A DNA stretch of 64,000 nucleotides from an uncultured beta proteobacterium (GCA_963802355.1 CAWDIV010000001.1:10839-74838); one strand, 5' to 3'. Positions 4,559 to 60,301 are shown, counted from the first letter of the stretch. Numbers and translations are program-made. Notes: generated by a model from the sequence alone, not told the origin.

Positions 4559-4641
4559 CCGCTGAGACGCCGAGAAACCCAAGGGCAATCTAGCCGCCGA
4601 TTACGCCGATAACGCCGATAAGGAAAGGCGCAGGTAGAGTG

Positions 4642-4728
4642 TTCATCCTTCATCCTTCATCCTTCATCCTTCATCCTTCATCCATTCATCCTTCATCCTT
4701 CATCCTTCATCCTTCATCCTTCATCCTT
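4642..4728. repeat. Tandem heptanucleotide array, about 12.5 copies of TTCATCC (one variant copy, CCATTCA)
   Basis: Read directly at 4642-4728. It lies between convergent genes, and the last units encode the C-terminal residues (..EKDEG*) of the minus-strand GNAT gene. Confidence 0.95.
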
Positions 4729-5220
4729 CTCGGCGAGGCGACGCAGGGCGTCGCCTGTTAGCCGAAAGACGCTCCATTCCCGCACCGGTTCGGCGCCTAT
4801 GCCTCGATAAAACCGGATCGCGGGCTCGTTCCAGTCGAGTACCGACCAGTCCAGCCTCGCGCAACCGCGAGCAGTGGCTACACCCGCAACGTACGCCAGC
4901 AATCTCCGGCCCAGCCCGCGGCGGCGCCAGCGCGGCTCCACGAAGAGATCCTCGAGGTACAGGCCCGGCTGTCCTGCAAAGGTGGAGAAAACAGGGAAAA
5001 AGACCGCGAAGCCTGCAGCCTCCTCGCCGGCGCGCGCGATAACGACCTCGGCGGCGGGGCGCGGCCCGAAAAGCGATGTGCGAAGGGCCTCTTCGGTGGC
5101 AACGACCTTGTGCGAGAGCCGCTGGTACTCCGCGAGCGCCTTGATCATGCCAAGAATGACCGGCACGTCGCGCTCCGTCGCCGCCTCGATGCGAAAATCC
5201 GCTGGTGGTTGAAGACTCAT
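4714..5220 (-). CDS. GNAT family N-acetyltransferase (diamine/spermidine acetyltransferase-like)
   Basis: MSLQPPADFRIEAATERDVPVILGMIKALAEYQRL...EDLFVEPRWRRRGLGRRLLAYVAGVA shows the acetyl-CoA binding motif. ATG 5220 was chosen inside the longer ORF 4714..5280. Confidence 0.85.
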   Translation of the reverse strand: MSLQPPADFRIEAATERDVPVILGMIKALAEYQRLSHKVVATEEALRTSLFGPRPAAEVVIARAGEEAAGFAVFFPVFSTFAGQPGLYLEDLFVEPRWRRRGLGRRLLAYVAGVATARGCARLDWSVLDWNEPAIRFYRGIGAEPVREWSVFRLTGDALRRLAEKDEG

Positions 5221-8739: not shown

Positions 8740-10215
8740 TTAGACCGTGCCGCCAACGGTCAGGCCGTCTATCCGCAGCGTTGGCTGGCCGACACCAACC
8801 GGCACGCTCTGCCCTTCCTTGCCGCAGGTGCCGACGCCAGGATCGAGCGCCATGTCGTTGCCGATCATGGCCACCCGGGTGAGCGCGTCCGGACCATTGC
8901 CGATGAGGGTCGCGCCCTTCACCGGATAGGCGAGCTTGCCGTTCTCGATGATGTAGGCCTCCGACGCCGAAAACACGAATTTGCCGCTGGTGATATCCAC
9001 CTGGCCGCCGCCGAAGTTCACGGCGTATATGCCGTTATTGACCGACGCGATGATCTCCTCGCGCGACTTGTCGCCATTCAGCATATAGGTGTTGGTCATG
9101 CGCGGCATCGGAATGTGCGCGTAGGATTCGCGACGGCCGTTACCCGTCGGAGGGACGTTCATCAGCCGCGCGTTCAAGCTGTCCTGCATGTAGCTTTTGA
9201 GCACGCCATTCTCGATCAACACGTTGCGCTGCGTCGGATGGCCCTCGTCGTCGATGTTGAGCGAGCCGCGCCGGGTTGCGATCGTGCCGTCGTCCACGAC
9301 GGTCACTCCCGGTGCCGCGACGCGCTCGCCGATCCTTCCGCTGAAGGTGGATGTCCCCTTGCGGTTGAAATCGCCTTCGAGGCCGTGCCCGACCGCCTCG
9401 TGCAGCAGCACGCCCGGCCACCCGGGACCGAGCACCACGGTCATGGTACCCGCGGGGGCGGGCCTCGCTTCGAGATTGACGAGCGCCTGGTCCACCGCCT
9501 TCTTCGCGTAGTCCTGGAGCACCTCGTCGGTAAAGTACGCGTAATCGAACCGCCCACCGCCGCCGGAACTGCCCTGCTCGCGCCGGCCTTCCTGCTCCAC
9601 GATCACCTGCAACGAGAGCCGCGTGAGCGGCCGCACGTCGGCGGCCAGCACGCCGTCCGATCGCGCGATCAGGATGACTTCGTACTCCCCGGCAAGATAA
9701 GCCATGACCTGGGAGACGCGCGGGTCGAGAGAGCGCGCGCAACGCTCGATACGCTCGAGCAAGGCGACTTTAGCCCGATCATCGAGACTCGCCAGTGGGT
9801 CCTGGGGCACGTACAGGTTGTGACCTGCGCGGCGCGTTACGACCTGCGTGCGGCTCGTCTGACCCTGGCGCGCAATGGCGCGAGTGGCCTCCGCGGCGGA
9901 AGTGAGGGCCGCCAGGCTGATGTCATCCGAATAGGCGAATGCGGTTTTCTCGCCGGATAGCGCCCTGACACCAACACCCTGGTCGATGTTGAAGCTGCCC
10001 GATTTGACGATGCCCTCCTCAAGGCTCCAGGACTCGCTGCGGGTGTACTGGAAGTAGAGGTCTGCGTGATCCACCCGATGCGCCATGATTTGACCGAAAA
10101 CGGTCTCGAGGCGGTTGCCGTCGAGGGCGTAGGGGGCGAGCAACACCTCGTTCGCTGTCGCGAACGAGGTTTCAAGTTTCAAGTTTGAAGTTTGAAGTTT
10201 GGGTGCGTCGGTCAT
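8740..10215 (-). CDS. tldD: Metalloprotease TldD
   Basis: [35 protein letters not shown]...[18 protein letters not shown] (HExxxH-type TldD motif). Intact. The ATG at 10215 is preferred over the TTG at 10233. Confidence 0.93.
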
Positions 10216-34198: not shown

Positions 34199-36914
<2,716 letters not shown>

Positions 36915-37512: not shown

Positions 37513-37990
37513 CTACCCTTGATCACCTTGAAGATCACGTCCAGCTCGAATCCCCGCCCCTGAAGGAACCGGACCTGACGTGCGCGTTCTGCCGCGCCGT
37601 CGGTAGCCTTCCGAACTTGCGGCGCCATACCGCCGCGCCGCTTCCAGCTCGCCTTCCTTCAGCTCCGGCAGCACCGCGGCTACCGCTTCCTCGGAAACGC
37701 CCTGGTCGCGCAGGTCTCGCTCGATTCTCCGGGCGCCGAACCGGCTGCGGCGCGTGTACCAGCTGCTCGCAACGCGCGTCTCGGAGAGCCAGCCGCGCGC
37801 CTCGAGCTCGTCGAGCAAGGCTTCGATCTCGCCAGGATCGGCGTCACGGCGGCAAGCTTACGCGCAAGCTCGCGGCGGGTATGCTCGCGCCGCGCGAGCA
37901 GCTTCAGCGCCCGCGCCCGCAGGCTGTCGCCCGACGCGACGGCTCTCTGGTCCGCCGCCCTCGTCGCTTCGCCCGCCTGTGCCTTTTCGC
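37513..37990 (-). CDS. recX: RecA regulator RecX; frameshifted, boundaries approximate
   Basis: [25 protein letters not shown] (frame of 37680..048) continues as [43 protein letters not shown] (frame of 37513..818). Confidence 0.75.
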
Positions 37991-37999
37991 TGCTTCCTT

Positions 38000-39052
<1,053 letters not shown>

Positions 39053-39078
39053 GTATGGTTTCCTTTTTTATGGACGGG

Positions 39079-39399
39079 AATGAAGGGATACCCCTCATGC
39101 TCCCTGGAACCTATCTCAACCATAGGCACGTGTGCGACGGAGGCGATGTGGGATGCAGTTCGAGGAGGAGAGCCCGCAGCAATATGTCGATATTGCAAGG
39201 GCTCCCGACGAACGAAATGCGCCCAGAGCGCCCCGTCCCTTCGGGTTGCGGCCAGGACGGGCGGCTGCGTTGTTGCCCGGCTTATCGACAGGCTGTCTCC
39301 TGAATTTGATTCAGGAGGCAGCCCGGCCTGCGCCGTGCGCCTCGCATCCATCCCGTCCTGGCCACAACGCATCACGCGCCTATGGTTGAGATAGGTTCC
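39079..39399. repeat. Copy 1 of a roughly 300-320 nt stem-closed structured element (candidate ncRNA or non-autonomous mobile element)
   Basis: About 95% identical to 47190-47486. It has a 22-nt terminal complement (39106-39127 / 39378-39399), a 12-nt internal long-range complement, and several hairpins. No ORF is conserved between the copies. Confidence 0.85.
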
Positions 39400-39781
39400 G
39401 GTTAGCAGCTGTTTCGTCAATGATCGAAACAGCCTGATTAAAGTAGGCCCGTATTTTAAACTACCCCTGCCGCCATCACGTGCTTTCATGCATCAAAGGT
39501 TTAAACGCGCGGCGCGAATTTTCAGTTGACTTCGTCGGCCACATCAGCGTCTTGGTACCACAAAGTGACTACTAACGTGACCGCCGACGGTTACCCAGAT
39601 CTGACCAAGCATAGGACTGGGGTAGAGCCCTCGGCCTAAAGCACCTCAGGGGATCGCGAGAGATTGATCTCGGCACCGACTAACTTCCGAAGAATGCGTT
39701 ACTCCTCAGGCCTTCGCGACGCTCAAATGACCCTAGAAGTCACTCTGCATCCATTACGGTCGGGTAATGAACCTGCAACTC

Positions 39782-40096
39782 TCATAGGCGCTCGATCGGC
39801 TGCGCTCGGACTACCAGCTCCTGCTGGGCAAACCGGCGCTCGAGGTCTCCCCGAAACCGTTCCCACCATGCGCGGTCAAGCTCCTCGACCATCACTTCGT
39901 AGACGACGATGTCGTCGCGCGCCGCCCGCCCGCCGTCGTCGCTCCACAGTCCTTCAGCCGGCGCGCGGGTGTACGCAGTGAATCCGCCGAACCGCTCCGC
40001 GAGCTCGCCGCGGACCGCCGCGTAGTGTGAAGCGGGAAACGGCTTCCCGGCGTTGTTGTAAACCGGTAGAAGAAGCTGGACGAGGTATGCGGACAT
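39782..40096 (-). CDS. Hypothetical protein (104 aa)
   Basis: ATG 40096 is preceded by AGGAGAA and starts 8 nt after the GNAT stop. MSAYLVQLLLPVYNNAGKPFPASHYAAVRGELAERFGGFTAY. Confidence 0.6.
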   Translation of the reverse strand: MSAYLVQLLLPVYNNAGKPFPASHYAAVRGELAERFGGFTAYTRAPAEGLWSDDGGRAARDDIVVYEVMVEELDRAWWERFRGDLERRFAQQELVVRAQPIERL

Positions 40097-40106
40097 ATTG
40101 TTCTCC

Positions 40107-40598
40107 TCATAGCAGCGTTTGCCAGAAGCCGACGTCGACCCACTGATCGAACTTGCGCCCCACCTGCGGAAAGTGGGCGACCTTGTTGAACCCGCACTTT
40201 TCGTGGAACGCGACGCTGCCCGGATTGGGGAGCGCAATGCAGCCGATGACCGCGTGTACGGCTTGCCGCCGCAGCGCCTCCAGCAAGGCCATGTACAGCG
40301 GAAAGCCGACGCCCGATCCCGTCGCGTCTCTGCGCACGTACACGGTGCTCTCCACCGTACGATCGTACGCCGCCCGCGACCGCCAGCGCGTCGCGTAAGC
40401 GTATGCCACGACAACCTGCTCCGACTCGGCGACGAGCCACGGATACGCTCCGGCGGTATCCCTGATGCGCGCACCCATGTCCGGCACGGAAACGGGCTCC
40501 TGCTCGAAGGTGACGACGGTATCGGTTACGTAGTGGTTGTAGATTCCGCAGATCGCCTGCGCGTCGGCCTCGGTGACCTTGCGAATGGCGGTTTTCAA
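40107..40598 (-). CDS. GNAT N-acetyltransferase, phosphinothricin/methionine-sulfoximine acetyltransferase-like
   Basis: IRKVTEADAQAICGIYNHYVTDTVVTFEQEPVSVPDM..PWLVAE..VESTVYVRRDATGSGVG..SVAFHEKCGF. The TTG start at 40598 overlaps the upstream stop. Confidence 0.85.
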   Translation of the reverse strand: MKTAIRKVTEADAQAICGIYNHYVTDTVVTFEQEPVSVPDMGARIRDTAGAYPWLVAESEQVVVAYAYATRWRSRAAYDRTVESTVYVRRDATGSGVGFPLYMALLEALRRQAVHAVIGCIALPNPGSVAFHEKCGFNKVAHFPQVGRKFDQWVDVGFWQTLL

Positions 40599-45975: not shown

Positions 45976-46064
45976 GTGAGCGGTAAGCGGTGAGCAGTGA
46001 GCAGTCGGCTAAGAGCGTCGGGATGCGAAGTTTACCGCTTACTGCTTACCGCTTACTGCTTACC
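45976..46064. repeat. Heptamer-arm hairpin element (GTAAGCG/GTGAGCA family) between ribH and ribBA
   Basis: GTGAGCGGTAAGCGGTGAGCAGTGAGCAG (45976-46004) against TACCGCTTACTGCTTACCGCTTACTGCTTACC (46033-46064). The right arm supplies the last codons of ribBA. Confidence 0.88.
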
Positions 46065-47171
46065 TGGTTGAAGATAGCCAGTGATCTCCAGCCCGAAACC
46101 CGCCATGCTGGGCATGCGGCGCGGCTGAGCCATCAGCCGCATCTTCCTGACCTTGAGATCCCTCAGGATTTGCGCGCCTATGCCGTAGTTCCGGAGCACG
46201 ACGGCGGGCGTGGAGTGCACCTCGCGCGGACGCGGCCGCGCGCGCTCCAGCAGCTCCTGCGCGGTTTCCGGCCGGTGCAGGAGGACGATCACGCCGCACT
46301 CGGCGCGCGCGATGGTGGCAAGCGCGTCGTTGAAGTTCCAGGAATGGCTGGTGCTGCTCACGTCGAGGATGTCGATTACCGAGATGGGCTCGTGCACTCG
46401 CACCAGCACTTCCCGGTCCGGCACCGGCTTGCCTTTCACCAGCGCCAGGTGCGTCTCCTGTCCGATGCGGTCGCTGTAGACGAACAGGCGCAGCCGCCCG
46501 TGCACGGTCTCGATCTCGCGCTCGGCGACCCGTGTCACGAGCGACTCGTTGCGGCCCCGGTACTGAATGAGATCCGTGATCGTGCCGATCTTCAGCTTGT
46601 GCCGCGCCGCGAACTCGATGAGATCAGGCAGCCGCGCCATTTCACCATCTTCCTTCAGGACTTCGCAGATGACGGCTGCGGGCGCCACCCCGGCCAGCCG
46701 GGCAAGATCGCAGCCCGCTTCGGTATGACCGGCCCGTACCAGTACACCGCCGTCCTGTGCCATGAGCGGGAAGATGTGGCCCGGCTGAACCAAGTCCTCC
46801 GGCCGGGCATCAGCGCGGATTGCGACCTGCACGGTGCGCGCGCGATCGGTCGCTGAAATGCCCGTCGTGACACCCTCCGCTGCTTCGATCGAGACGGTGA
46901 AGTTCGTGCCGAGCGGCGAGCGGTTGTTGATCACCATCTGCGGAAGATTCAATTGGCGGCACTTCTCCGCGGTCAGCGTGAGGCAGATGAGCCCCCGCCC
47001 GTAACGGGCCATGAAGTTGATCGCCTCGGGCGTGACGAACTCGGCGGCGATCAGCAGGTCGCCCTCGTTCTCACGGTCTTCCTCGTCTACCAGTACGACC
47101 ATCCGGCCGGCGCCAAGATCGGCGATGAGGTCGGAAATGGGGCTGATCGCCGTGTCTGGGCGCGAGCTCAT
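46053..47171 (-). CDS. ribBA: Bifunctional 3,4-dihydroxy-2-butanone-4-phosphate synthase / GTP cyclohydrolase II
   Basis: [41 protein letters not shown] (RibB), then [12 protein letters not shown]...HLALVKG (RibA-like half). The ATG 47171 lies within ORF 46053..47189. Confidence 0.92.
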
Positions 47172-47189
47172 GGCTAAGGTAACTAACAA

Positions 47190-47486
47190 AATGAGGGGAT
47201 ACTCCCCTCATGCTCCCTGGAATCTATCTCAACCATAGGCACTTGTGCGACGGAGGCGACGTGGGATGCAGTTCGAGGAGGAGAGCCCGCAGCAATATGT
47301 CGATATTGCAAGGGTTCCCGACGAAGAAATGCGCCCAGATCGCCCCGTCCCTTCGGGTTGCGGCCAGGACGGGCGTCTGCGTTGTTGCCCGGCTTGACCA
47401 TATCGACATATGGCCTGCACCGTGCGCCTAGCATCCATCCCGTCCTGGCCACAACGCATCACGCGCCTATGGTTGAGATAGGTTCC
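47190..47486. repeat. Copy 2 of the stem-closed structured element
   Basis: Aligns with 39079-39399 apart from one hairpin swap. Terminal complement 47219-47240 / 47465-47486; 12-nt helix 47362-47373 / 47439-47450. Confidence 0.85.
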
Positions 47487-47693
47487 GATCAGGGCGCCTA
47501 TCCTTCATTTTGATAGGCGCTATAAATAAAAACGGACAGGATACAGGATATAACCCCCTGTTCCATAACGTGTCTGGGATTTTTCTGAGCCGGGATGTCG
47601 CCATCGCTGCCGTCGCAGGAACTACCTGAGGGCACCCCGCTCTATGCTGGCACACTGGTTATTGTCCGGGGTCGTATGCTACAACTTGACAGC

Positions 47694-52468: not shown

Positions 52469-53258
52469 GCAGCCCAGTTTCGGCAGGGTTTTCTTTTAAG
52501 CCCTCATCTCGCTCCGCACTCGCACTATTTCTCTTCTGGCTTCAGTCGGCGCGTAGTGAACTTGGCCGCATCGCGGAACATCGTAGTGCAACCCTTGCAT
52601 TGGTAAGCCTGCGTCCAACGTAGAACCCCTTCCCTTGTTCTCGATGTAGACCTGCGAGAACTCGTCGGCGCCGCAGATAGGGCAAATAAAGGGGATGCGT
52701 GACGCCGTATTGCCCATAGCTGTATAAGCATACAGTCACGACCTATTCCGACTCAAGTCTTACAGACCCCATTTTCAGTCATTCAAAGTGACATGTTGAG
52801 CAGCCCTAATTAAGATAGGCCGAGGTCATGCGAATGGAGGTGTAGAAAAAGCCAATATGTCGCGTTCAAAAAAGCAGAACGGTCAGCAACCTGACGCCAC
52901 TACGCTAATAACCCACCCAATTGGCGCTACGTTCTTCCCCGCGCAATCCATCGGCGCCATCGAGGCGTACTTGACCAGATGGAACGGGACATCCTGAACG
53001 CCCCCGCCCAGGGAGACCACGAGAGCTGCGATCCTTGACGGTCAAGCCCGACGTGACGCTGCCTGACGTTCCCGAGACCGGCGTGTACGGGTCGAGCGGA
53101 AGCGGAGGCTGCATTAGCGCTGTTTTCGACCCGCAATTATCCGGTTGCATTGAATGGCCGCTTCCTGAAACTCGAATGGCTGGTTTCGGGAAACGTGACT
53201 GCCCGTGATCGACCCTAACCCGCCACTCAGGTTTCCCGAAACCGGTCACTCGCGTCGT

Positions 53259-54248
53259 TTACTCGATTACCTTGTCCGCACGCGCCAGGATCGACTGCGG
53301 GATCGTGATGCCCAGCGCCTTGGCGGTCTTTAGGTTCACCACCAGCTCGAACTTGGTCGGCTGCTCGACGGGAAGGTCTGCAGGTTTCGCTCCCTTGAGT
53401 ATCTTGTCTACGAAATAGGCGGCACGCTTGAAGTACTTCGTTAGATCAGGTCCATAGCTCATGAGGGCTCCCGCTTCTGCGAATTGGGAGGGTGCGCTCA
53501 TTGTTGGTAGTCGTTGCGCCAAGGCGAGCCGAGCTAATTGCGCTCGGTTTCTAACTAAAAGGGGTGTGTGGGCAAGAACTACGGCGTCTACCTGTTTTTT
53601 TCGCGCCAGACTGAATGCTCGCTCGATATCGTCGGCATTGTCGATCTTGATCGGCTCGACTTCTAAACCGAGTTTGCGAGCGGCGGCCTGCAGATCATCG
53701 GATTGAAGGACCCCTCCTGGGTTGGTGCTCTCCCACATTATGGCCAGCCTTCGCATTCTCGGGAGCACCTCTTTGAATAACTCAACTTCTTTGCCCGCAA
53801 GCTCCACGACTTGATCCGTCATACCCGTTAGATTGCCACCTGGGCGCGCGAGACTTGCGACCAGACCGCTCCGCAGCACATCTGACGCAACTGCCACGAC
53901 GATAGGTATGCTAGTGGTTGCCGCTTTGACGATTTGTGCGGCCTGGAGCCCGTGGGTGACGATGACGTCAACCTTGAGGCGGACCAATTCGGTGGCAAGC
54001 ATCGTTCGTCGCTCGGCGCTTCCTTCCGTCCACCGTACCTCGATAGTGATATTGCGCCCATCAACATAGCCTAGTTCGGCCATAGCTTCGCGAAATGGCT
54101 CGAAAGAATCGGCCGCGCGTTGGGCTGCTGTCCCGTCACCAAGGTAGCCAATGCGCCAGACTCTGGATTGTTGCTGCGAAAAAGACGCTAGCGGCGCCGC
54201 GAGCGCGCCTGCGCCGAGCACAATGATCAGTTTGCGGCGATTGTTCAT
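53259..54248 (-). CDS. ABC-transporter-type substrate-binding protein, ABC_sub_bind family, orphan (paralog a)
   Basis: MNNRRKLIIVLGAGALAAPLASFSQQ..VWRIGYL..VDVIVTHG..YFVDKILKGAKPADLPVEQPTKFELVVNLKTAKALGITIPQSILARADKVIE. Confidence 0.88.
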   Translation of the reverse strand: MNNRRKLIIVLGAGALAAPLASFSQQQSRVWRIGYLGDGTAAQRAADSFEPFREAMAELGYVDGRNITIEVRWTEGSAERRTMLATELVRLKVDVIVTHGLQAAQIVKAATTSIPIVVAVASDVLRSGLVASLARPGGNLTGMTDQVVELAGKEVELFKEVLPRMRRLAIMWESTNPGGVLQSDDLQAAARKLGLEVEPIKIDNADDIERAFSLARKKQVDAVVLAHTPLLVRNRAQLARLALAQRLPTMSAPSQFAEAGALMSYGPDLTKYFKRAAYFVDKILKGAKPADLPVEQPTKFELVVNLKTAKALGITIPQSILARADKVIE

Positions 54249-54479
54249 TCCCCCTCCCAATCCGCACGGCTATTATGCTCGCTTACCCCAAGGACAGCAG
54301 GCCGCGAGTCCAACGGGGGAGTGTCACAGACGACCGGTTTTGGCCGGCTACGGCCTGCTGCCGGCAGATTCCAATTTTCCAGATAGCGGCCGTTGCCGGA
54401 CAGACGTAATCGGTAGAGTCGAGATGTGGCGCGGTGGCGGTAGGTTCGGTTTGTCTGTTGCCGCCCCTTTCGTCTGGCG

Positions 54480-55138
54480 GTGCCCGAGTAACCTCGCCGT
54501 AGCTCCGTTTCCACATCCCGCTCATCGAACCGGACATGCAGATCTCCCGCATCCGGCTCTCGGACAAGACATCACGCCTGCTTGCGCGTGCAACGCCCTC
54601 TGCGGTTTCTGAACCCTGTCGGAGTTGATAGGGTTGTCCCAATCTCCAGGTCCCTCACCACGTCTTGCGTCAGCCTTGAACTGAGGCCCCTTCCCTCCAT
54701 CGGCGTTACCCGACTTCAGCGGTACTATGAGCCTCTCCGAGATCCCAAGGCGCCCGGCCTGTCCCTCGCGGGCATCCGGTTGATCGTCCCTGATCGCGCC
54801 TCGGGACTTCCCGTGTTGCGTGCGCTTTCCTGGTGTGCATGCTGTCGCCACTGCCCCGGCGCAGCAACCGGGCTGACTGCTTCGCTCATTCACCCAGTCG
54901 TATCAACCTTCCCCGAAAGGGTTGTCGGGTCGGCCTGCGCATCGACCTTTTCGAGGTTTGCTCAGCGTTCACTCACGTTACGGCCTGCACACTCGCCAAG
55001 TCACCTATATGTGACCCTCTGCACCGAAGGCTTCAGCCACTTCGTTACCTCCATGACTGCTCCGATTGCTTCCGGCTGGAGCCGTTGCCGGGTGGGCCTT
55101 ACACCCACTGGAAAGCGCCGCCTTGTCACGGCGCACAC
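54480..55138 (-). mobile_element. ORF-less (IEP-deleted) group II intron remnant
   Basis: The minus strand starts GTGTGCGCCGTGAC (GUGYG-type 5' end at 55138/55136). Domain V GAGCCGGAUGCGGGAGAUCUGCAUGUCCGGUUC lies at 54527-54559 (AGC triad, 2-nt bulge, GAGA loop). A relic of the maturase N-terminus ([18 protein letters not shown]) lies at 54581-54633. The 3' end is approximate. Confidence 0.7.
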
Positions 55139-55182
55139 CCGTTGCGGTCAGTCGTTGTTCTCGATAGCGGACATTGCCGTGG

Positions 55183-56238
55183 TCACTCAATCACCTTGTC
55201 GGCGCGCACGAGAATCGTGTTTGGAATTGTGATCCCGAGCGCCTTGGCCGTCTTCAGATTCACCACCAGCTCGATCCTCGTCGGCTGCTCGATCGGCATG
55301 TCGGCCGGCTTCGCGCCCTTGAGAATCCGGTCGACGTAGTAGGCGGCACGGCGGTAACTTGCCGACTCGTCAACCCCGTAGCTCAGCAAGGCACCTGCGT
55401 CAGCCCACTCCCCGACACTGCCGATGGCCGGCCAGCGTTGCTCCTGCGCAAACTTCACGATGCGCCGCCGCTCGGTGTGGAAAACACCCGGGCTCGGCAT
55501 CACGACGAGCGCTTGCGCGCCTTCCTTCGCCAGGCGCGCCAGGGCGGGCTCGATCTCTTCCGGACGAGCCACCTCGGCGATCCGTGCCTCCACCGAGTAT
55601 TGCGATACGGAGCGATGCATGTTTGCCAGAAGCGGGACAAGATTCGCGGAGGTGGTATCGACCAGAAAGCCGATGCGCCGCAGCCTGGGCGCCGCGGCGA
55701 GCAGCAGCTCCAGGTATTTCTCGGAGACGTCGCTCGTCAAACTGGCGATCCCAGTGACCATGCCGCCGGGCCGCGCGAGGCTTGTCGCCAGTCCCGCGAC
55801 GACCGGATTGCCGCCGATCACGACGACGGGCGTCCTGGGCGCGGCCTTGGTGGCGGCTCTTGCTGCCGGTGTCGGCACGGCAACAATGACCGCCGCTCGC
55901 TTCGCCGCCAGTTCGTCGGCCAGTGCTGGCAGACGGTCCATCCGGCCGTCCGCCCAGCGCTCTTCGATCACGACCTGGGACCCCTCCTTCATGCCTAGCG
56001 CGGCGAGCCCCTCCCTGAATGCGGCATGCAAATGCCCATTCCCCTCGCGCGGGCGCGCGTTCAGGAGACCGATCAAGACCGGCATCTGCGTTGTCTGTGC
56101 TCGCGCCGCACCCGTCCACGCGAGCGCGGGGCACGCCGCTGCCGCGAGGAGAAACGCCCGGCGCGTTGAACGGCACGCAGTGTCCGTTCGAACGCGACGA
56201 CGTAAACCGGCACGCCAGTGTCCAGGTTTACGGTTCAC
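55183..56238 (-). CDS. ABC_sub_bind family substrate-binding protein (paralog b)
   Basis: Ends ..YYVDRILKGAKPADMPIEQPTRIELVVNLKTAKALGITIPNTILVRADKVIE. The GTG start overlaps the stop of paralog c (GTGA). Confidence 0.85.
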   Translation of the reverse strand: MNRKPGHWRAGLRRRVRTDTACRSTRRAFLLAAAACPALAWTGAARAQTTQMPVLIGLLNARPREGNGHLHAAFREGLAALGMKEGSQVVIEERWADGRMDRLPALADELAAKRAAVIVAVPTPAARAATKAAPRTPVVVIGGNPVVAGLATSLARPGGMVTGIASLTSDVSEKYLELLLAAAPRLRRIGFLVDTTSANLVPLLANMHRSVSQYSVEARIAEVARPEEIEPALARLAKEGAQALVVMPSPGVFHTERRRIVKFAQEQRWPAIGSVGEWADAGALLSYGVDESASYRRAAYYVDRILKGAKPADMPIEQPTRIELVVNLKTAKALGITIPNTILVRADKVIE

Positions 56239-57225
56239 TCGATCACCCGGTCCGCGCGCACCAGGATGGACTGCGGGATCGTGATTCCGAGCGCTTTGGC
56301 GGTTTTCATGTTGACCACCAGCTCGAACCTGGTCGGCTGCTCGATGGGAAGATCACTCGGCTTTGTGCCCTTGAAAATCCGGTCCACGTAGTAGGCGGCG
56401 CGGCGCCAATTGTCTACTTGATTTGACGCGTAGCCCATCAGAATCCCGCGCTGCACGTGTGGCAAATTGATCGAAGCAGACGGCAGCCGATGCTTCACCG
56501 CCAGTTCCGCGATCTGGTGCATTTGCTGGGTGAAAAGGTTGCCGCCCGCAACGATCACCGCACGTACGTTCTCCCGGTTCATTCGGGAAAATGCGTCTTC
56601 GATTTCCACTGCGTTCCCCGCCTGCATCGGCAGGATCGTTACGCCCGCCTTCTGCGCTGCTGGCTGATAACTATTCATGACGTTGATGGAGCCGGGGCTG
56701 GCTGGGTCATACAGGACGGCCGCACGATTGAGCTTGGGCATGATGCCCAGCAGGATTTCCAGATTTTTGGACCCGAGTTCGCCAGTGAGGTCCGTGAGCC
56801 CGGTGATGTTGCCGCCAGGCCGCGCCAGACTCTTGACGAGGCCAGTTGCGACCGGATCAGAGACGCCCAGCATGACGATTGGAATGGCAGTGGTTGCTTT
56901 CTGCACCGCACTCGCACTGGGTGTCCCGCTTGCCACGATGACGTCCACTTTCAGCCGCACCAGTTCCGCCGCAAGGCCCGGTAAGCGCTCTGCCTTGCCC
57001 TTCGGCGAAGCGCCACTCGATGACGAGGTTTTTTCCCTCGACATAGCCAAGGTCCTTCAACCCTCGCAGAAAACCGTCACGTAGGTCTGAATCCACTTGG
57101 GTGAACTCAGCCGGCACCCTGAGAGCCCCGACCCGCCAGATTTTGCCCTCTTGCTGCGCGAACGCCGCCCGCGGCGCAAGCGCAGCGGCGCCGAACGCGA
57201 TGAGCAGATCGCGACGTCTGTTCAC
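56235..57225 (-). pseudogene. ABC_sub_bind family paralog c, split by one frameshift near 57000
   Basis: The N-terminal ORF 56857..57225 (MNRRRDLLIAFGAAALAPRAAFAQQEGKIWRVG..) and the C-terminal ORF 56235..57050 (..RLPGLAAELVRLKVDVIVASG..ADRVIE) are in different frames. Confidence 0.8.
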
Positions 57226-58244
57226 TCGATCACCCTGTCGGCACGCACCAGTATCGACTGCGGGATCGTGAGGCCGAGCGCCTTGGCGGTCTTCATGTTG
57301 ACCACCAGCTCAAACTTCGTGGGCTGCTCGATTGGCAGGTCGGCGGGCTTGGCTCCCTTTAAGATCTTGTCCACGAAATATGCGACGCGCCGGTAGCTCT
57401 CCGCTTGGACCGTCCCGTAGGACATGAGGCCACCGGCCTCTACAGCGATTCTGCTGCCGTACACCGACGGTAACCGGCTTTTTATCGCAAAGCCCGCGAT
57501 CCGTTTTACGTTAGCACCTAATAACTGGCCCCCGCCGGACACATAGAGTCCATCCGGGCGCTGCTTGTTTAGCGCAGCGAATACCTTCTCGAAATCGTCC
57601 GCATCTCGTACCTCCCAAGGCTGAACGGTCAACCCCAGCGCACGCGCCGCGACAGGGAGAACCTCTTTCACTTCGCGTGTAGTGCCCGGAATTGTCGGGT
57701 CGTAGAGAACCGCGACACGGGCAACTTTGGGAACGGCTTCTTTGAGCAGCTCCAGCCGCTTCCCGCCTAGCTTTGGGCCAAGGTTTGTAATGCCGGTGAC
57801 GTTGGCGCCGGGACGGGCAAGGCTTTCAACAAAGCCTGCCTCAACAGGATCGGGCCCAGCGCCCACCATAATGATGGGAATCGTCTTGGTCGCATTCTTA
57901 GCCGCCTGGGTAGTGGTCCCTCCTGCTGAAACGATGAGATCAACCTTGAGACCCACCAGCTCGGCGGCAAGCTCAGGGAGCCGATCGCGCTTCCCCTCCG
58001 CATATCGGTACTCGATGTCGATGTTTTGTCCTTCGATGTAGCCAAGCTCGCGCAGAGCCAGCCGAATCGCCTCGGCACGGGTGGACTCACTAGCTGAATC
58101 GAGCGGCGATAAATGCCCTATCAGCGGGACTTTCTTCGGCTGCTGCGCTGACGCAGAATAGCAAAGCGCAAAGAGCATGGCGCAAAGAGTAAGGATTGTG
58201 ATTTTTCCCTGTCGAGTAGACATCGAAATGTCTCCTTTAGGCAT
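57222..58244 (-). CDS. ABC_sub_bind family substrate-binding protein (paralog d)
   Basis: ..KVPLIGHLSP..VDLIVSAGG..YFVDKILKGAKPADLPIEQPTKFELVVNMKTAKALGLTIPQSILVRADRVIE. Its stop overlaps the start of paralog c. Confidence 0.88.
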   Translation of the reverse strand: MPKGDISMSTRQGKITILTLCAMLFALCYSASAQQPKKVPLIGHLSPLDSASESTRAEAIRLALRELGYIEGQNIDIEYRYAEGKRDRLPELAAELVGLKVDLIVSAGGTTTQAAKNATKTIPIIMVGAGPDPVEAGFVESLARPGANVTGITNLGPKLGGKRLELLKEAVPKVARVAVLYDPTIPGTTREVKEVLPVAARALGLTVQPWEVRDADDFEKVFAALNKQRPDGLYVSGGGQLLGANVKRIAGFAIKSRLPSVYGSRIAVEAGGLMSYGTVQAESYRRVAYFVDKILKGAKPADLPIEQPTKFELVVNMKTAKALGLTIPQSILVRADRVIE

Positions 58245-58580
58245 GCTTTGTATTCTCTGTTAGGGGCTCACGATTAGAGCATGTTACGCGATCTGGATTG
58301 CACGCCGGCTCTGGCATCGATTCGGATTTAAGTCTCGAATGTCTGGGAATAACTCTACAGGTTGCCCGTAACGTGGAATGGCCGGTTATGGCCGAACAGC
58401 GCCAGATGCACCCGACCCCTAGATTTCCGGGTAGCAGTCGTTCGTCAGCCGCGTCTATCGACCGAAGCGGACGCTTAATGGCCCGAGTTAAGCCGCGCTG
58501 CGAAGCTACCGGCAACGCGTGCTAGCGTAGCGCGAGTACGGCGGCTGACGCCATGAAGCGGCGTCGGCTTGAACGAATTG

Positions 58581-58922
58581 TTAGGCACTAGGCTTCGGCT
58601 TAAGTTTGCCTCGGAACCTCTGCTTCTCGTTTACCGAATACGTGGCCTCACCTTGGTGCTCCCACCACTCATAAGATCCGGAAACGTATCGTGCGCCTGA
58701 TGCGGAAACGGCTTGCGACAAGACCTTGGTAGTGCCATCGGTGAACGTCAGCGTAACCGTGCCATTGTCGCGGTAGTCGGCGCGGATGGTTTGCCCAGAA
58801 TCCGAGACGAACACACCCGATCCTACAACCGAAGCCGCAGGCTGGAGAGTTCTCACTGAGGCGCACGAAGCTGAGCCAGTAAGAATCAATAGAGCCATAA
58901 GCGAGTCGCGGAAGACTTTCAT
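58581..58922 (-). CDS. MliC-like lipoprotein (C-type lysozyme inhibitor family)
   Basis: Lipobox LILTGSASC, then IRADYRDNGTVTLTFTDGTTKVLSQAVSASGARYVSGSYEWWEHQGEATY. Confidence 0.65.
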   Translation of the reverse strand: MKVFRDSLMALLILTGSASCASVRTLQPAASVVGSGVFVSDSGQTIRADYRDNGTVTLTFTDGTTKVLSQAVSASGARYVSGSYEWWEHQGEATYSVNEKQRFRGKLKPKPSA

Positions 58923-59343
58923 GCTGGTGCCTAACGTATAGTGAACTTCTGAAATGCAGCCTATTATGGCGCAGGAATATCGAAATAGGCTGCGAGGAAA
59001 AACGACCGAGTGACCGCTTCTGGCCGACTGTGGCCGGTTGCGTCTGCATCTCGAATTTCCAGATAGCCGTCGTTCGCGGCAAAAAAAATCGAACCGCTTC
59101 AAAGCTGCCGGTGCCGAAGGCCAGCACGCGACCCAAGCCTGTCATTCGGATAGACCAAATCACGGGCTCATAGGAGGGTTTCGAAAAATCTGTCGAGAAT
59201 CCAATTCGTGATGCCGTGGTTGGTGCGCAACTTATGGCCGTTGATCGCGTTGGTGGTATTCTGTGCAACGGGGCCAATGATCCCCAGACACTATACGCGG
59301 CCCGTGCCGCCCGAAGCGCTGCTTATCAGGAGAGGGAACCACG

Positions 59344-59835
59344 ATGAAAACGAAACGTGTATTCACGAGTTTCTTTGTGCTGGCTGTATTGTTTGCTGCC
59401 GTCTCGCCAGTATTTTCGCAAGAATCTCCACCACCGTCTGACAAAGCAAAACAGGTTGTTGCCCTCGTCGATAAGGCTGCGGCGCTCGTCACCAGCAAAG
59501 GGAAGGAGGCCGCGTTCACCGAGTTCAGAAAGAAAGGAAGCGAGTGGTTTTTCGATGACCTATACCTTTTCGCGTACGATTTGGATCTAAACACATTGCT
59601 TGTTGCCGCTTTTCCCAAGAACGAGGGGAGCAACCACACGGGCAGGAAAGATGCGAACGGCAAGGTATTTCACACCGAGTTTGTAAAAGTAGTCCAATCC
59701 AAGGGGTCGGGGTGGGTGGATTACATGTTCCCCAAACCAGGGCAAACCGAACCATCGCGGAAATGGGGCTACGTGAAGGCCGTGAGTATAGATGGAGTTC
59801 CCGGCTTTGTCGGCGCGGGTTTCTACCCCGAGTGA
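59344..59835 (+). CDS. Secreted single Cache-like (sCache_2-type) domain protein
   Basis: Signal peptide, then KGKEAAFTEFRKKGSEWFFDDLYLFAYDLD..GSGWVDYMFPKPG..KWGYVKAV..FVGAGFY. Confidence 0.7.
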   Translation: MKTKRVFTSFFVLAVLFAAVSPVFSQESPPPSDKAKQVVALVDKAAALVTSKGKEAAFTEFRKKGSEWFFDDLYLFAYDLDLNTLLVAAFPKNEGSNHTGRKDANGKVFHTEFVKVVQSKGSGWVDYMFPKPGQTEPSRKWGYVKAVSIDGVPGFVGAGFYPE

Positions 59836-59901
59836 GGCATAACCGCGCCCTTGATATAAGCCGTCACAAGCAAGCGTAAACTCGGCAGCGATCACAAGAA
59901 G

Positions 59902-59924
59902 GTGCGCGTCGCACGGGTTTTTTT
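59902..59924 (+). terminator. Rho-independent terminator candidate
   Basis: GTGCG-CGT-CGCAC followed by GGGTTTTTTT, 67 nt downstream of the Cache gene stop. Confidence 0.5.
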
Positions 59925-60038
59925 GTGTTCGTGAGCCAACTTGTGATATAGCTTATGGGTAACTCACGGACGCCCGCTTTTTGGCCGGTAAGCGACCTAC
60001 ATGGTCAGTTTCCGAGCCGAAGCTGCCATTCTCGCCCG

Positions 60039-60301
60039 TTACTCGATCACCCGGTCCGCGCGCACCAGGATCGACTGCGGGATCGTGATGCCGAGCGCCT
60101 TGGCGGGTTTCATATTGATCACCAGCTCCCGCAGACCTGCCCGCAGTGCGTCCACCCGGGCCGCAGAACCAAAACTGAAGCGGAAACCGTGGCGAGGAAC
60201 CCGATGCGCCAGATCTTGCCCGGCTGCTGGGCGAACCCGCCCAGCGACGCCGTGAACACGCCCGCGCCAAGCGCGACGAGAGGTTTGCGGCGATTGTTCA
60301 T
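60039..60301 (-). pseudogene. Internal-deletion relic of an ABC_sub_bind paralog (about 60 N-terminal codons joined to the last 27 codons)
   Basis: MNNRRKPLVALGAGVFTASLGGFAQQPGKIWRIGFL.. and ..ALRAGLREL|VINMKPAKALGITIPQSILVRADRVIE, with one frame change. It keeps the conserved leader upstream. Confidence 0.75.

Follow-up and report, generated by a model that had tools for sequence, protein, structure and literature searches.

Upstream of recA and of ribBA, a 64,000-nt stretch of DNA from an uncultured beta proteobacterium (GCA_963802355.1 CAWDIV010000001.1:10839-74838; the whole stretch is referred to as the window) carries two copies of one large palindromic element. The element is probably a non-autonomous, non-coding palindromic mobile repeat, resembling miniature inverted-repeat transposable elements (MITEs) or REPINs, of an undescribed family from uncultured soil Burkholderiales. 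This assignment is based on features that are hallmarks of MITEs: copies lie at unrelated loci and in both orientations, derivatives (core-only and mini forms) keep the termini, and the orthologous sites of related genomes are without the element. The small size (49-367 nt), the lack of coding capacity, and the terminal inverted repeats support it further. Bacterial MITEs consist of terminal inverted repeats around a core, encode no transposase, are usually shorter than 200 bp but reach about 400 bp, form long stem-loops, and often lie 5' of genes (PMC3184786). A sequence-only reading of the same DNA had implied a new class of functional RNA at recA and ribBA, and the same hallmarks argue against that claim.

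Judged by homologues of its RibBA and RecA proteins, the window lineage appears to belong to uncultured Burkholderiales of the Betaproteobacteria. An exact look-up of the window RibBA protein returned no record.

The long form of the element, to which both window copies belong, is overall a single large imperfect palindrome of approximately 355-367 nt. The recA copy measures approximately 367 nt and the ribBA copy approximately 355 nt, with ends uncertain by about 3 and 5 nt, respectively. The inner inverted repeat of 22-29 bp is nearly perfect, with a perfect core of 22 nt, and in the recA copy it extends to 35 nt with 89% complementarity. The 22-mer GGAACCTATCTCAACCATAGGC was matched four times in the window, compared with no match in 100 dinucleotide shuffles. 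Each terminal repeat contains a small palindrome, CCTAT-N7-ATAGG, and the ends of the element read (A/G)GAACC. The interior is formed by two long hairpin arms with exchangeable tips, and weaker outer inverted repeats, each with a small hairpin, complete the long form.

Across three collinear blocks, the two copies were 96-97% identical, and 86.7% identical overall when gaps were counted. Where the recA copy has an arm tip of 45 nt, the ribBA copy has a hairpin of 20 nt instead. When the window was searched by nhmmer with the family alignment, exactly two copies were returned (E = 6e-102 for recA and 1e-113 for ribBA). The second copy before ribBA, already noticed in the sequence-only reading, was thus recovered, and the four structural features it had described at recA (the paired 22-mers, the arm pairing, the hairpin at 39170-39204, and CCTTCGG) were all read in the sequence where it had placed them. 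The extents required correction. The stem-closed element given as 321 nt at recA is real but longer, spanning approximately 39079-39445 and including a second, promoter-side hairpin. The ribBA copy, placed at 47190-47486 and 18 nt from the ATG, in fact spans approximately 47178-47537, including a hairpin at 47494-47520, and its gene-proximal end lies about 6-8 nt from the ribBA ATG.

Insertions absent from related genomes

Both window copies are insertions that are absent from the related genomes examined. Upstream of ribBA, the relatives L012-L014, L016, L018, and L019 have only 46-59 nt to a divergent small gene. In L015, the closest relative by RibBA (93%), the upstream sequence shared with the window reads ...ATGGAACAG(G/A)GGGTT(A/G)TATCCTGTAT(C/T)CT, with the L015 ATG about 18 nt further on. 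Compared with L015, the window has approximately 355 extra nt at this site.

At recA, the relatives L018 and L019 (RecA 98%, gene order as in the window) as well as L020-L027 have 142-181 nt between the DUF6607 gene and recA, without the element. After exclusion of 39082-39445, the window aligned with the recA upstream region of the relatives, including GCGTCAACT..GCGCGTTT..GGCAGG.GGT.GTTTAAAATACG. The promoter-side hairpins (39408-39433 and 47494-47520) are therefore part of the insertion. The flanks of both window copies aligned cleanly to the relatives on either side, and an nhmmer search of approximately 190 kb of DNA from the relatives revealed no copy of the element.

The surroundings of the two genes showed further differences. 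In L018 and L019, VanY lies between cinA and GNAT and the DUF6607 gene between GNAT and recA; the window has neither of them. Its positions 39446-40107 hold instead a 104-aa open reading frame (ORF; 39782-40096, minus strand), for which no Pfam match was found, and about 330 nt of non-coding sequence with lower G+C. Upstream of ribBA, the motif GGTTGTAGCATA stands 3-6 nt before the ATG in L012 (~9985-9997), L018 (~2838-2851), and L019, and 25 nt before it in L016. This placement suggests a leaderless ribBA mRNA in L012, L018, and L019. In the window, the motif (47680-47692) is located about 510 nt upstream of ribBA, with approximately 160 nt of extra sequence and the element in between.

Copies at other loci

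Scans for further copies covered 185,579 representative genomes and JGI metagenome contigs. Among the representative genomes, the exact inverted repeat was present in one only, at a contig end of a metagenome-assembled genome (MAG; L001). The JGI contigs (L002-L011) yielded nine true matches and one chance match, with L003 and L007 being two contigs of the same locus, and the contigs with copies come from soil. The search of other genomes and metagenomes that the sequence-only reading had called for gave copies at unrelated loci. The tally was ten copies at nine distinct loci, two of them in the window, one in the MAG, and seven in the soil metagenome contigs. Five of the eight copies outside the window are cut by the contig end, as is expected of a multi-copy repeat.

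BLAST of the element and of its terminal repeat against PLSDB plasmids and INPHARED phages gave chance matches only (PLSDB E = 0.9, inside a gene). A scan of viral contigs for the terminal repeat gave no match, and a full-text literature search for the terminal repeat sequence found no paper.

The long form was seen in the recA and ribBA copies, L011, and L001. One of its flanks consists of about 40 nt with the hairpin ATGAGGGG-AGT-ATCCCCTCAT, followed by TTTGTTACC, and the other of CCTGAT(C/T)G and another hairpin. The core-only form, of about 270-294 nt, runs from GAACC to GGTTC between unrelated flanks. It is complete in L004, and the contig-cut copies L002, L006, and L010 are core-only at their sole visible end; L009 is also contig-cut, with only the opposite end visible. 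In the mini forms, the termini alone are kept as hairpins of 49-57 nt. L005 is a 49-nt hairpin made from both inverted repeats, and L003/L007 carries an internal deletion between two CAAC microhomologies. Exchange of arm tips was observed here as well, with a different arm-1 tip in L010 and a different arm 2 in L001.

The outer flanks are mutually inverted in the ribBA copy and in L011, where the alignment score was 28 compared with approximately 14.4-15 ± 3.0 in shuffles; this score was reached by 1 of 500 shuffles for the ribBA copy and by none of 500 for L011. The outer inverted repeat of the recA copy was not significant against shuffles. At either end, the outer motif reads CAAAATGA in the ribBA copy and CAGAATGA in L011. 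Pairing of the ends, or their concerted evolution, could account for such motifs, which differ between copies and match within a copy, as seen in these two copies only.

The L011 copy is flanked by the stop codon of a 262-aa gene and by a gene that appears bactofilin-like from its translated N-terminus. It lies 22 nt from the ATG of the latter and is antisense to both. The L001 copy is convergent with its neighbouring gene, which from its translation appears to encode a BON-domain protein. The mini forms lie between convergent genes, and the L003/L007 element adjoins a stop codon. The common orientation at both window genes, noted earlier, did not hold as a rule, with two sense copies (recA, ribBA) and two antisense copies (L011, L001) relative to neighbouring genes.

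Candidate target-site duplications were CCG/CCG (L011), CC (recA), CCG/CCT or CCT/CCT (ribBA), and CTA/CTA (L004), with boundaries that were set post hoc and are uncertain by a few nt. No conserved GTAG/CTAC tetranucleotide was evident at the ends of the element, and no tetranucleotide was shared at the upstream junctions. As a non-autonomous repeat, the element would be moved in trans by a transposase recognising its inverted repeats. The end sequence that a partner DDE transposase or RAYT would share is (G)GAACCTATCTCAACCATAGGC.

Copies of this kind might also arise as artefacts of error-prone long-read assembly, through fold-back chimeric reads or mis-joined repeats, and the window does contain many single-base indels. 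Read as 37904-39052, the recA ORF loses its frame after codon 78, and the correct frame is carried on in 37858-38817. The gene contains at least three single-base insertions: one G within TCCGGTG (at about 38818-38822), one A within GAGCAATCC (at about 38112-38118), and, a few codons further on, one G within GGCGAAG. The alaS gene (34199-36899) is broken into two ORFs that overlap. In relatives assembled from short reads, both genes are intact (362 aa for recA and 872 aa for alaS), and the long-read-style 'contig_' assemblies L018 and L019 have breaks similar to those of the window. Given the intact genes of the relatives, the indels of the window are likely long-read assembly errors rather than marks of pseudogenes, and the recA and alaS frameshifts are most likely of this origin. 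This may also hold for some of the small indels that distinguish the element copies. The element as such can hardly be an artefact, because independent assemblies carry it: the same termini and the same internal order recur in a MAG and in metagenome assemblies made independently from several samples. With the clean alignment of both flanks to relatives also taken into account, an assembly origin of the copies was considered extremely improbable.

Folded form and position relative to expression signals

Both strands of the element fold far beyond shuffled sequences (z = −12.6 and −12.9, approximately −210 kcal/mol). The predicted fold on either strand has the shape of a Y, in which a stem of about 30 bp closes the structure and two long arms branch off. 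The fold of the minus strand was better by 0.3-15 kcal/mol, and five conserved G.T wobbles were counted on the minus strand compared with two on the plus strand, a difference that was not significant.

Covariation was evaluated in an alignment of eight sequences with 104 pairs. Pairing was maintained in 96.9% of alignment cells, and 78 of the 104 pairs never vary. Two-sided changes were found in four pairs, compared with 1.3 ± 1.0 in shuffles (11 of 500 shuffles reached the observed value). The share of varying core columns was 20% in stems and 46% in loops (Fisher p = 1.8e-4). The homologous promoter-side hairpins of the recA copy and L011 differ by a single compensatory change, T-A to C-G, and by one additional base pair. 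A loop inversion in this hairpin of the recA copy was considered and rejected, as the alignment with L011 shows plain divergence. The data are compatible with constraint on the folded form and, equally, with self-templating palindromic DNA, and they single out no functional strand. The sequence-only reading had held that its claim would fall if aligned copies gave no covariation support, and four two-sided pairs beside 78 invariant ones come close to that outcome.

A concatenated six-frame translation had no match among 5.8 billion proteins, and the reading frames of the element are interrupted by stops. Rfam 15 gave nothing on the element when the whole window was searched at gathering score. 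At E ≤ 10, the best matches of both copies and three other loci had E = 0.26-5, with scores at a small fraction of the gathering scores. The earlier statement that no known family was recognised agrees with the Rfam check of the whole window and of both copies.

In the relatives L018, L019, and L020-L027, the hexamer TAAAAT stands 31-32 nt ahead of the recA ATG, and its conservation covers three lineages. In the window, the insertion starts 7 nt after this hexamer and ends before the AAGGAA Shine-Dalgarno sequence of recA. From its sequence and position, TAAAAT is the putative −10 box of recA. If so, the recA mRNA would most likely start just before the element and carry a structured leader of approximately 390 nt. 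The element is predicted to fold as a self-contained domain, with the recA Shine-Dalgarno region unpaired.

No sigma-70-like promoter was found inside either copy by a sigma-70 scan, and the TTGAGA hexamer of the terminal repeat had no −10 partner at 16-18 nt when the sequence was read. Of the functions proposed earlier, namely a regulatory or promoter element or a structured leader, the leader fits the position of TAAAAT upstream of the insertion, whereas an internal promoter found no support in the scan.

On the sense strand, the ribBA copy has a G+C-rich last hairpin and then the tail TTTGTTAGTT, predicted by the scan as a terminator-like site. The same arrangement of hairpin and T-run occurs in L001 and L011. 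The tail of the recA copy, TCCCGTCC, has no U-run, and the terminator scan reported nothing there. This tail is best explained as native flank, and the recA copy is therefore without the last ~8 nt.

In agreement with the sequence-only reading, no CTGT-N8-ACAG box was found in 39053-40110 with up to one mismatch allowed, and none was found upstream of recA in any of the relatives. The missing LexA box is therefore ancestral in the clade and not due to the insertion. The sole exact CTGT-N8-ACAG in the window, CTGTATAAGCATACAG (52720-52735), is situated directly upstream of a small minus-strand ORF (ATG 52716), the product of which starts MGNTASRIPFICPICGADEF....

Located in the leader, the element would be part of the recA and ribBA transcripts, folded into a self-contained Y with the start region left unpaired, and little effect on translation initiation would be expected. 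In sense orientation, the last hairpin with its U-run could act as an attenuating terminator, which would be intact before ribBA and would have lost the U-run before recA. Partial termination before ribBA could result. By analogy with Correia elements, the closing duplex of about 30 bp would be a plausible substrate of RNase III. As read from these sequence features, the net effect on expression would probably be dampening or neutral, and not dedicated regulation.

Several of these observations would also be expected of a functional structured RNA, that is, either a mobile leader or attenuator module acting in cis or a gene for a non-coding RNA that relies on host promoters and carries a terminator of its own. 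The palindromy of the DNA would, in that case, be a by-product. The extreme folding z-scores fit such an RNA, as do the insertion close behind the conserved −10-like box at recA and the unpaired Shine-Dalgarno region. The window copies are both sense to the downstream gene and hairpin-ended, with the U-run at ribBA, L001, and L011. Changes that preserve hairpins also agree with it (CCATAT/ATATGG versus CCCTAT/ATAGGG, GAGCCC/GGGCTC versus GAACCC/GGGTTC, and the promoter-side hairpins of the recA copy and L011). However, both strands fold equally, L011 and L001 are antisense to their neighbouring genes, and the core-only and mini forms, found between convergent genes or at stop codons, have no terminator. 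The element is absent at all orthologous recA and ribBA sites of the relatives, hence it is a conserved regulator of neither gene; the scan detected no internal promoter, and with 78 of the 104 pairs invariant, covariation is little informative. On balance, a functional RNA was judged quite improbable.

Equally far-fetched is a variant of the mobile element in which the long form is a transposable leader cassette selected at the level of RNA or single-stranded DNA. Such a cassette would land a few nt from transcription starts, perhaps via the melted promoter bubble or the AT-rich −10 region, and borrow the host promoter. With its insulated Y-shaped fold and its own terminator hairpin, it would form a movable attenuator or processing site before housekeeping genes. 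Signatures of such selection would be the A/G variant that the two outer repeats of a copy have in common (CAAAATGA, CAGAATGA), the hairpin-preserving tip swaps, and the loss of the U-run before recA.

A different mode of movement, as single-stranded DNA by a tyrosine (Y1/HUH) transposase, was considered unlikely. The element would then be an oversized REPIN, composed of two inverted REP-like units (CCTAT-N7-ATAGG) with nested spacer hairpins, and a single-copy RAYT would reside elsewhere in the genome. In line with this, the 22-nt terminal repeats are small imperfect palindromes in their own right, the mini form in L005 corresponds exactly to a 49-nt REP doublet hairpin, and no firm target-site duplication was observed. 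The nested-hairpin fold with stems more conserved than loops, and the slightly favoured minus strand, point in the same direction. On the other hand, the scan of ORFs (30-64 kb of the window, and the loci in part) revealed neither a RAYT nor a Y1 transposase, GTAG/CTAC was not evident at the ends, and the strand asymmetry in wobbles was not significant.

The assignment to a MITE-like or REPIN-like mobile repeat has points against it as well. The inspection of flanks proposed in the sequence-only reading gave candidate target-site duplications of 2-3 bp at some copies; none was found in L005 and L007, and none was consistent across copies. Neither the window ORFs scanned (30-64 kb) nor the PLSDB plasmids yielded an autonomous insertion sequence, or a transposase, whose ends match those of the element. 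The interior is far more structured than that of a typical MITE, with arm tips replaced by other hairpins and four compensatory pairs, which could indicate selection on folded RNA or single-stranded DNA. Finally, transcription, termination, and RNase III cleavage of the element are inferences.

A number of other readings were rejected, mostly by sequence and known family features. A D5-like group II intron hairpin at GAGCCC..GGGCTC was dismissed on account of its 3x2 internal loop, its GUCG loop, and the lack of an Rfam match. The motifs of an integron attC or a XerCD dif-like site were absent. An FMN riboswitch before ribBA had no Rfam match, and the corresponding interval in the relatives measures only 46-59 nt. 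A TA target duplication of the IS630/mariner type fitted loosely at the recA and ribBA copies and not at all at L011 and L001. A gene-specific riboswitch or attenuator of recA or ribBA was rejected as the element is absent upstream of these genes in all relatives, lies beside unrelated genes, and is antisense in L011 and L001. A PATE derived from IS200/IS605 was rejected because of the long terminal inverted repeats and the lack of a shared tetranucleotide at the upstream junctions.

Taken as a mobile repeat, the element explains why recA is preceded by an odd gap of about 1 kb, and why both recA and ribBA have a structure before them, without a new RNA class. Annotators should be aware of a repeat in this lineage at which short-read assemblies break. 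An unusually large and branched MITE-like family would be added from uncultured soil Burkholderiales. The window also offers two natural test cases in which a structured insertion of about 360 nt separates the presumed promoter region from the start codon of a core gene, one of them with a terminator-like hairpin. These cases bear on the tolerance of leader structure, on repeat processing (e.g., by RNase III), and on transcription attenuation.

Feature coordinates and other features of the window

Table 1. Positions of the element copies, their parts, and the adjoining genes in the window, with the basis of each entry.
Feature	Position	Strand	Basis
Long-form element, recA copy (between the TAAAAT box and the recA Shine-Dalgarno/ATG)	39079-39445	-	alignment to relatives after excision, nhmmer
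Long-form element, ribBA copy	47178-47537	-	empty site in L015; nhmmer
Inner inverted repeat, left arm, recA copy	39106-39127	+	exact 22-mer
Inner inverted repeat, right arm, recA copy	39378-39399	-	exact 22-mer
Inner inverted repeat, left arm, ribBA copy	47219-47240	+	22-mer with 1 mismatch
Inner inverted repeat, right arm, ribBA copy	47465-47486	-	22-mer
Internal arm pairing	39245-39261 with 39352-39368		direct sequence reading
GAGCCC..GGGCTC hairpin	39170-39204		direct sequence reading
CCTTCGG motif	39237-39246		direct sequence reading
Gene-proximal hairpin, recA copy, ATGAGGGG-TAT-CCCTTCAT	39080-39098	-	sequence; fold −18.1 kcal/mol; no U-run after
Gene-proximal hairpin, ribBA copy, then TTTGTTAGTT	47191-47211	-	terminator scan: 9 pairs, 5 G-C, T-rich tail
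Promoter-proximal hairpin, recA copy, GCTGTTTCG / CGAAACAGC	39408-39433	-	inverted repeat; fold z = −4.0; inside the insertion
Promoter-proximal hairpin, ribBA copy, GCGCCTATC / GATAGGCGC	47494-47520	-	inverted repeats; loop holds CAAAATGA
Outer inverted-repeat motif, ribBA copy	47183-47197 / 47502-47516		sequence comparison
Variable tip of arm 2, recA copy (45-nt near-perfect palindrome)	39284-39328		alignments, inverted repeat
Arm-2 tip as 20-nt hairpin	47396-47415 (ribBA copy); also L004, L011, L009, L010		alignments
−10-like TAAAAT of the recA upstream block	39453-39458	-	conserved in relatives; 7 nt from the insertion
recA with at least three frame-breaking single-base insertions	37858-39052	-	
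ribBA, intact, with DHBP synthase and GTP cyclohydrolase II domains	46053-47171	-	

The only Rfam match in the window was a group II intron domain D1-D4 (RF02003, 103.5 bits) at 54973-55110 on the minus strand, between two paralogous ABC substrate-binding genes. Neither a reverse-transcriptase ORF nor a D5-D6 match was found near these positions, and the match may represent an ORF-less or decayed group II intron. The surrounding region (53240-60130) contains the direct-repeat families D1/D2, which correspond to four to five tandem paralogous ABC_sub_bind (PF04392) genes with 71-81% DNA identity. A tandem heptamer, TTCATCC, is repeated in approximately 15 units at 4628-4740. In the related locus L017 (1737-3116), a 459-aa RecA (P0121) has an internal tandem duplication of about 100 residues, with GEMGDSHMGLQ...GISRE occurring twice, and this duplication is probably an assembly artefact.

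Relation to known palindromic repeats

Correia elements of Neisseria (CREE/NEMIS), the classic betaproteobacterial MITE, have been reported to act via promoters, terminators, and RNase III processing. Like the element described here, they are non-coding and form a long hairpin, with terminal inverted repeats of about 22-26 bp. They often lie just 5' of genes, are co-transcribed, and show presence/absence differences between related genomes (PMC3184786). With a length of 104-157 bp, a TA target duplication, and an IHF site, Correia elements differ from the present element of 270-367 nt, which has a branched, Y-shaped interior with two long arms and outer hairpins and no sequence similarity to them, and for which no TA duplication and no promoter were found.

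REPINs share with it the inverted terminal small palindromes, the 49-nt doublet form (L005), and the intergenic location, and no clear target duplication was found for the element. Their length is about 70-150 nt with a short spacer, whereas the spacer here comprises approximately 220-250 nt of nested hairpins. Of the features of REPIN/RAYT systems, no RAYT was found in the scanned ORFs and no conserved GTAG/CTAC motif at the ends.

ERIC/IRU and SPRITE elements are likewise imperfect palindromes in transcribed intergenic regions with size variants due to indels (PMC3184786). The pneumococcal SPRITE resembles a rho-independent terminator (PMC3184786), to which the gene-proximal hairpin and U-run of the present element are comparable. 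ERIC/IRU and SPRITE belong to other taxa, are much shorter (ERIC about 127 bp), and have no sequence similarity to the element.

The large cyanobacterial MITEs (MaeMITE) are of an unrelated phylum and unrelated in sequence, and they are linked to insertion sequences, whereas no such link was found for the element here. Their size of 150-435 bp is, however, in a comparable range (Table 1 of PMC3184786), and bacterial MITEs of about 400 bp therefore exist.

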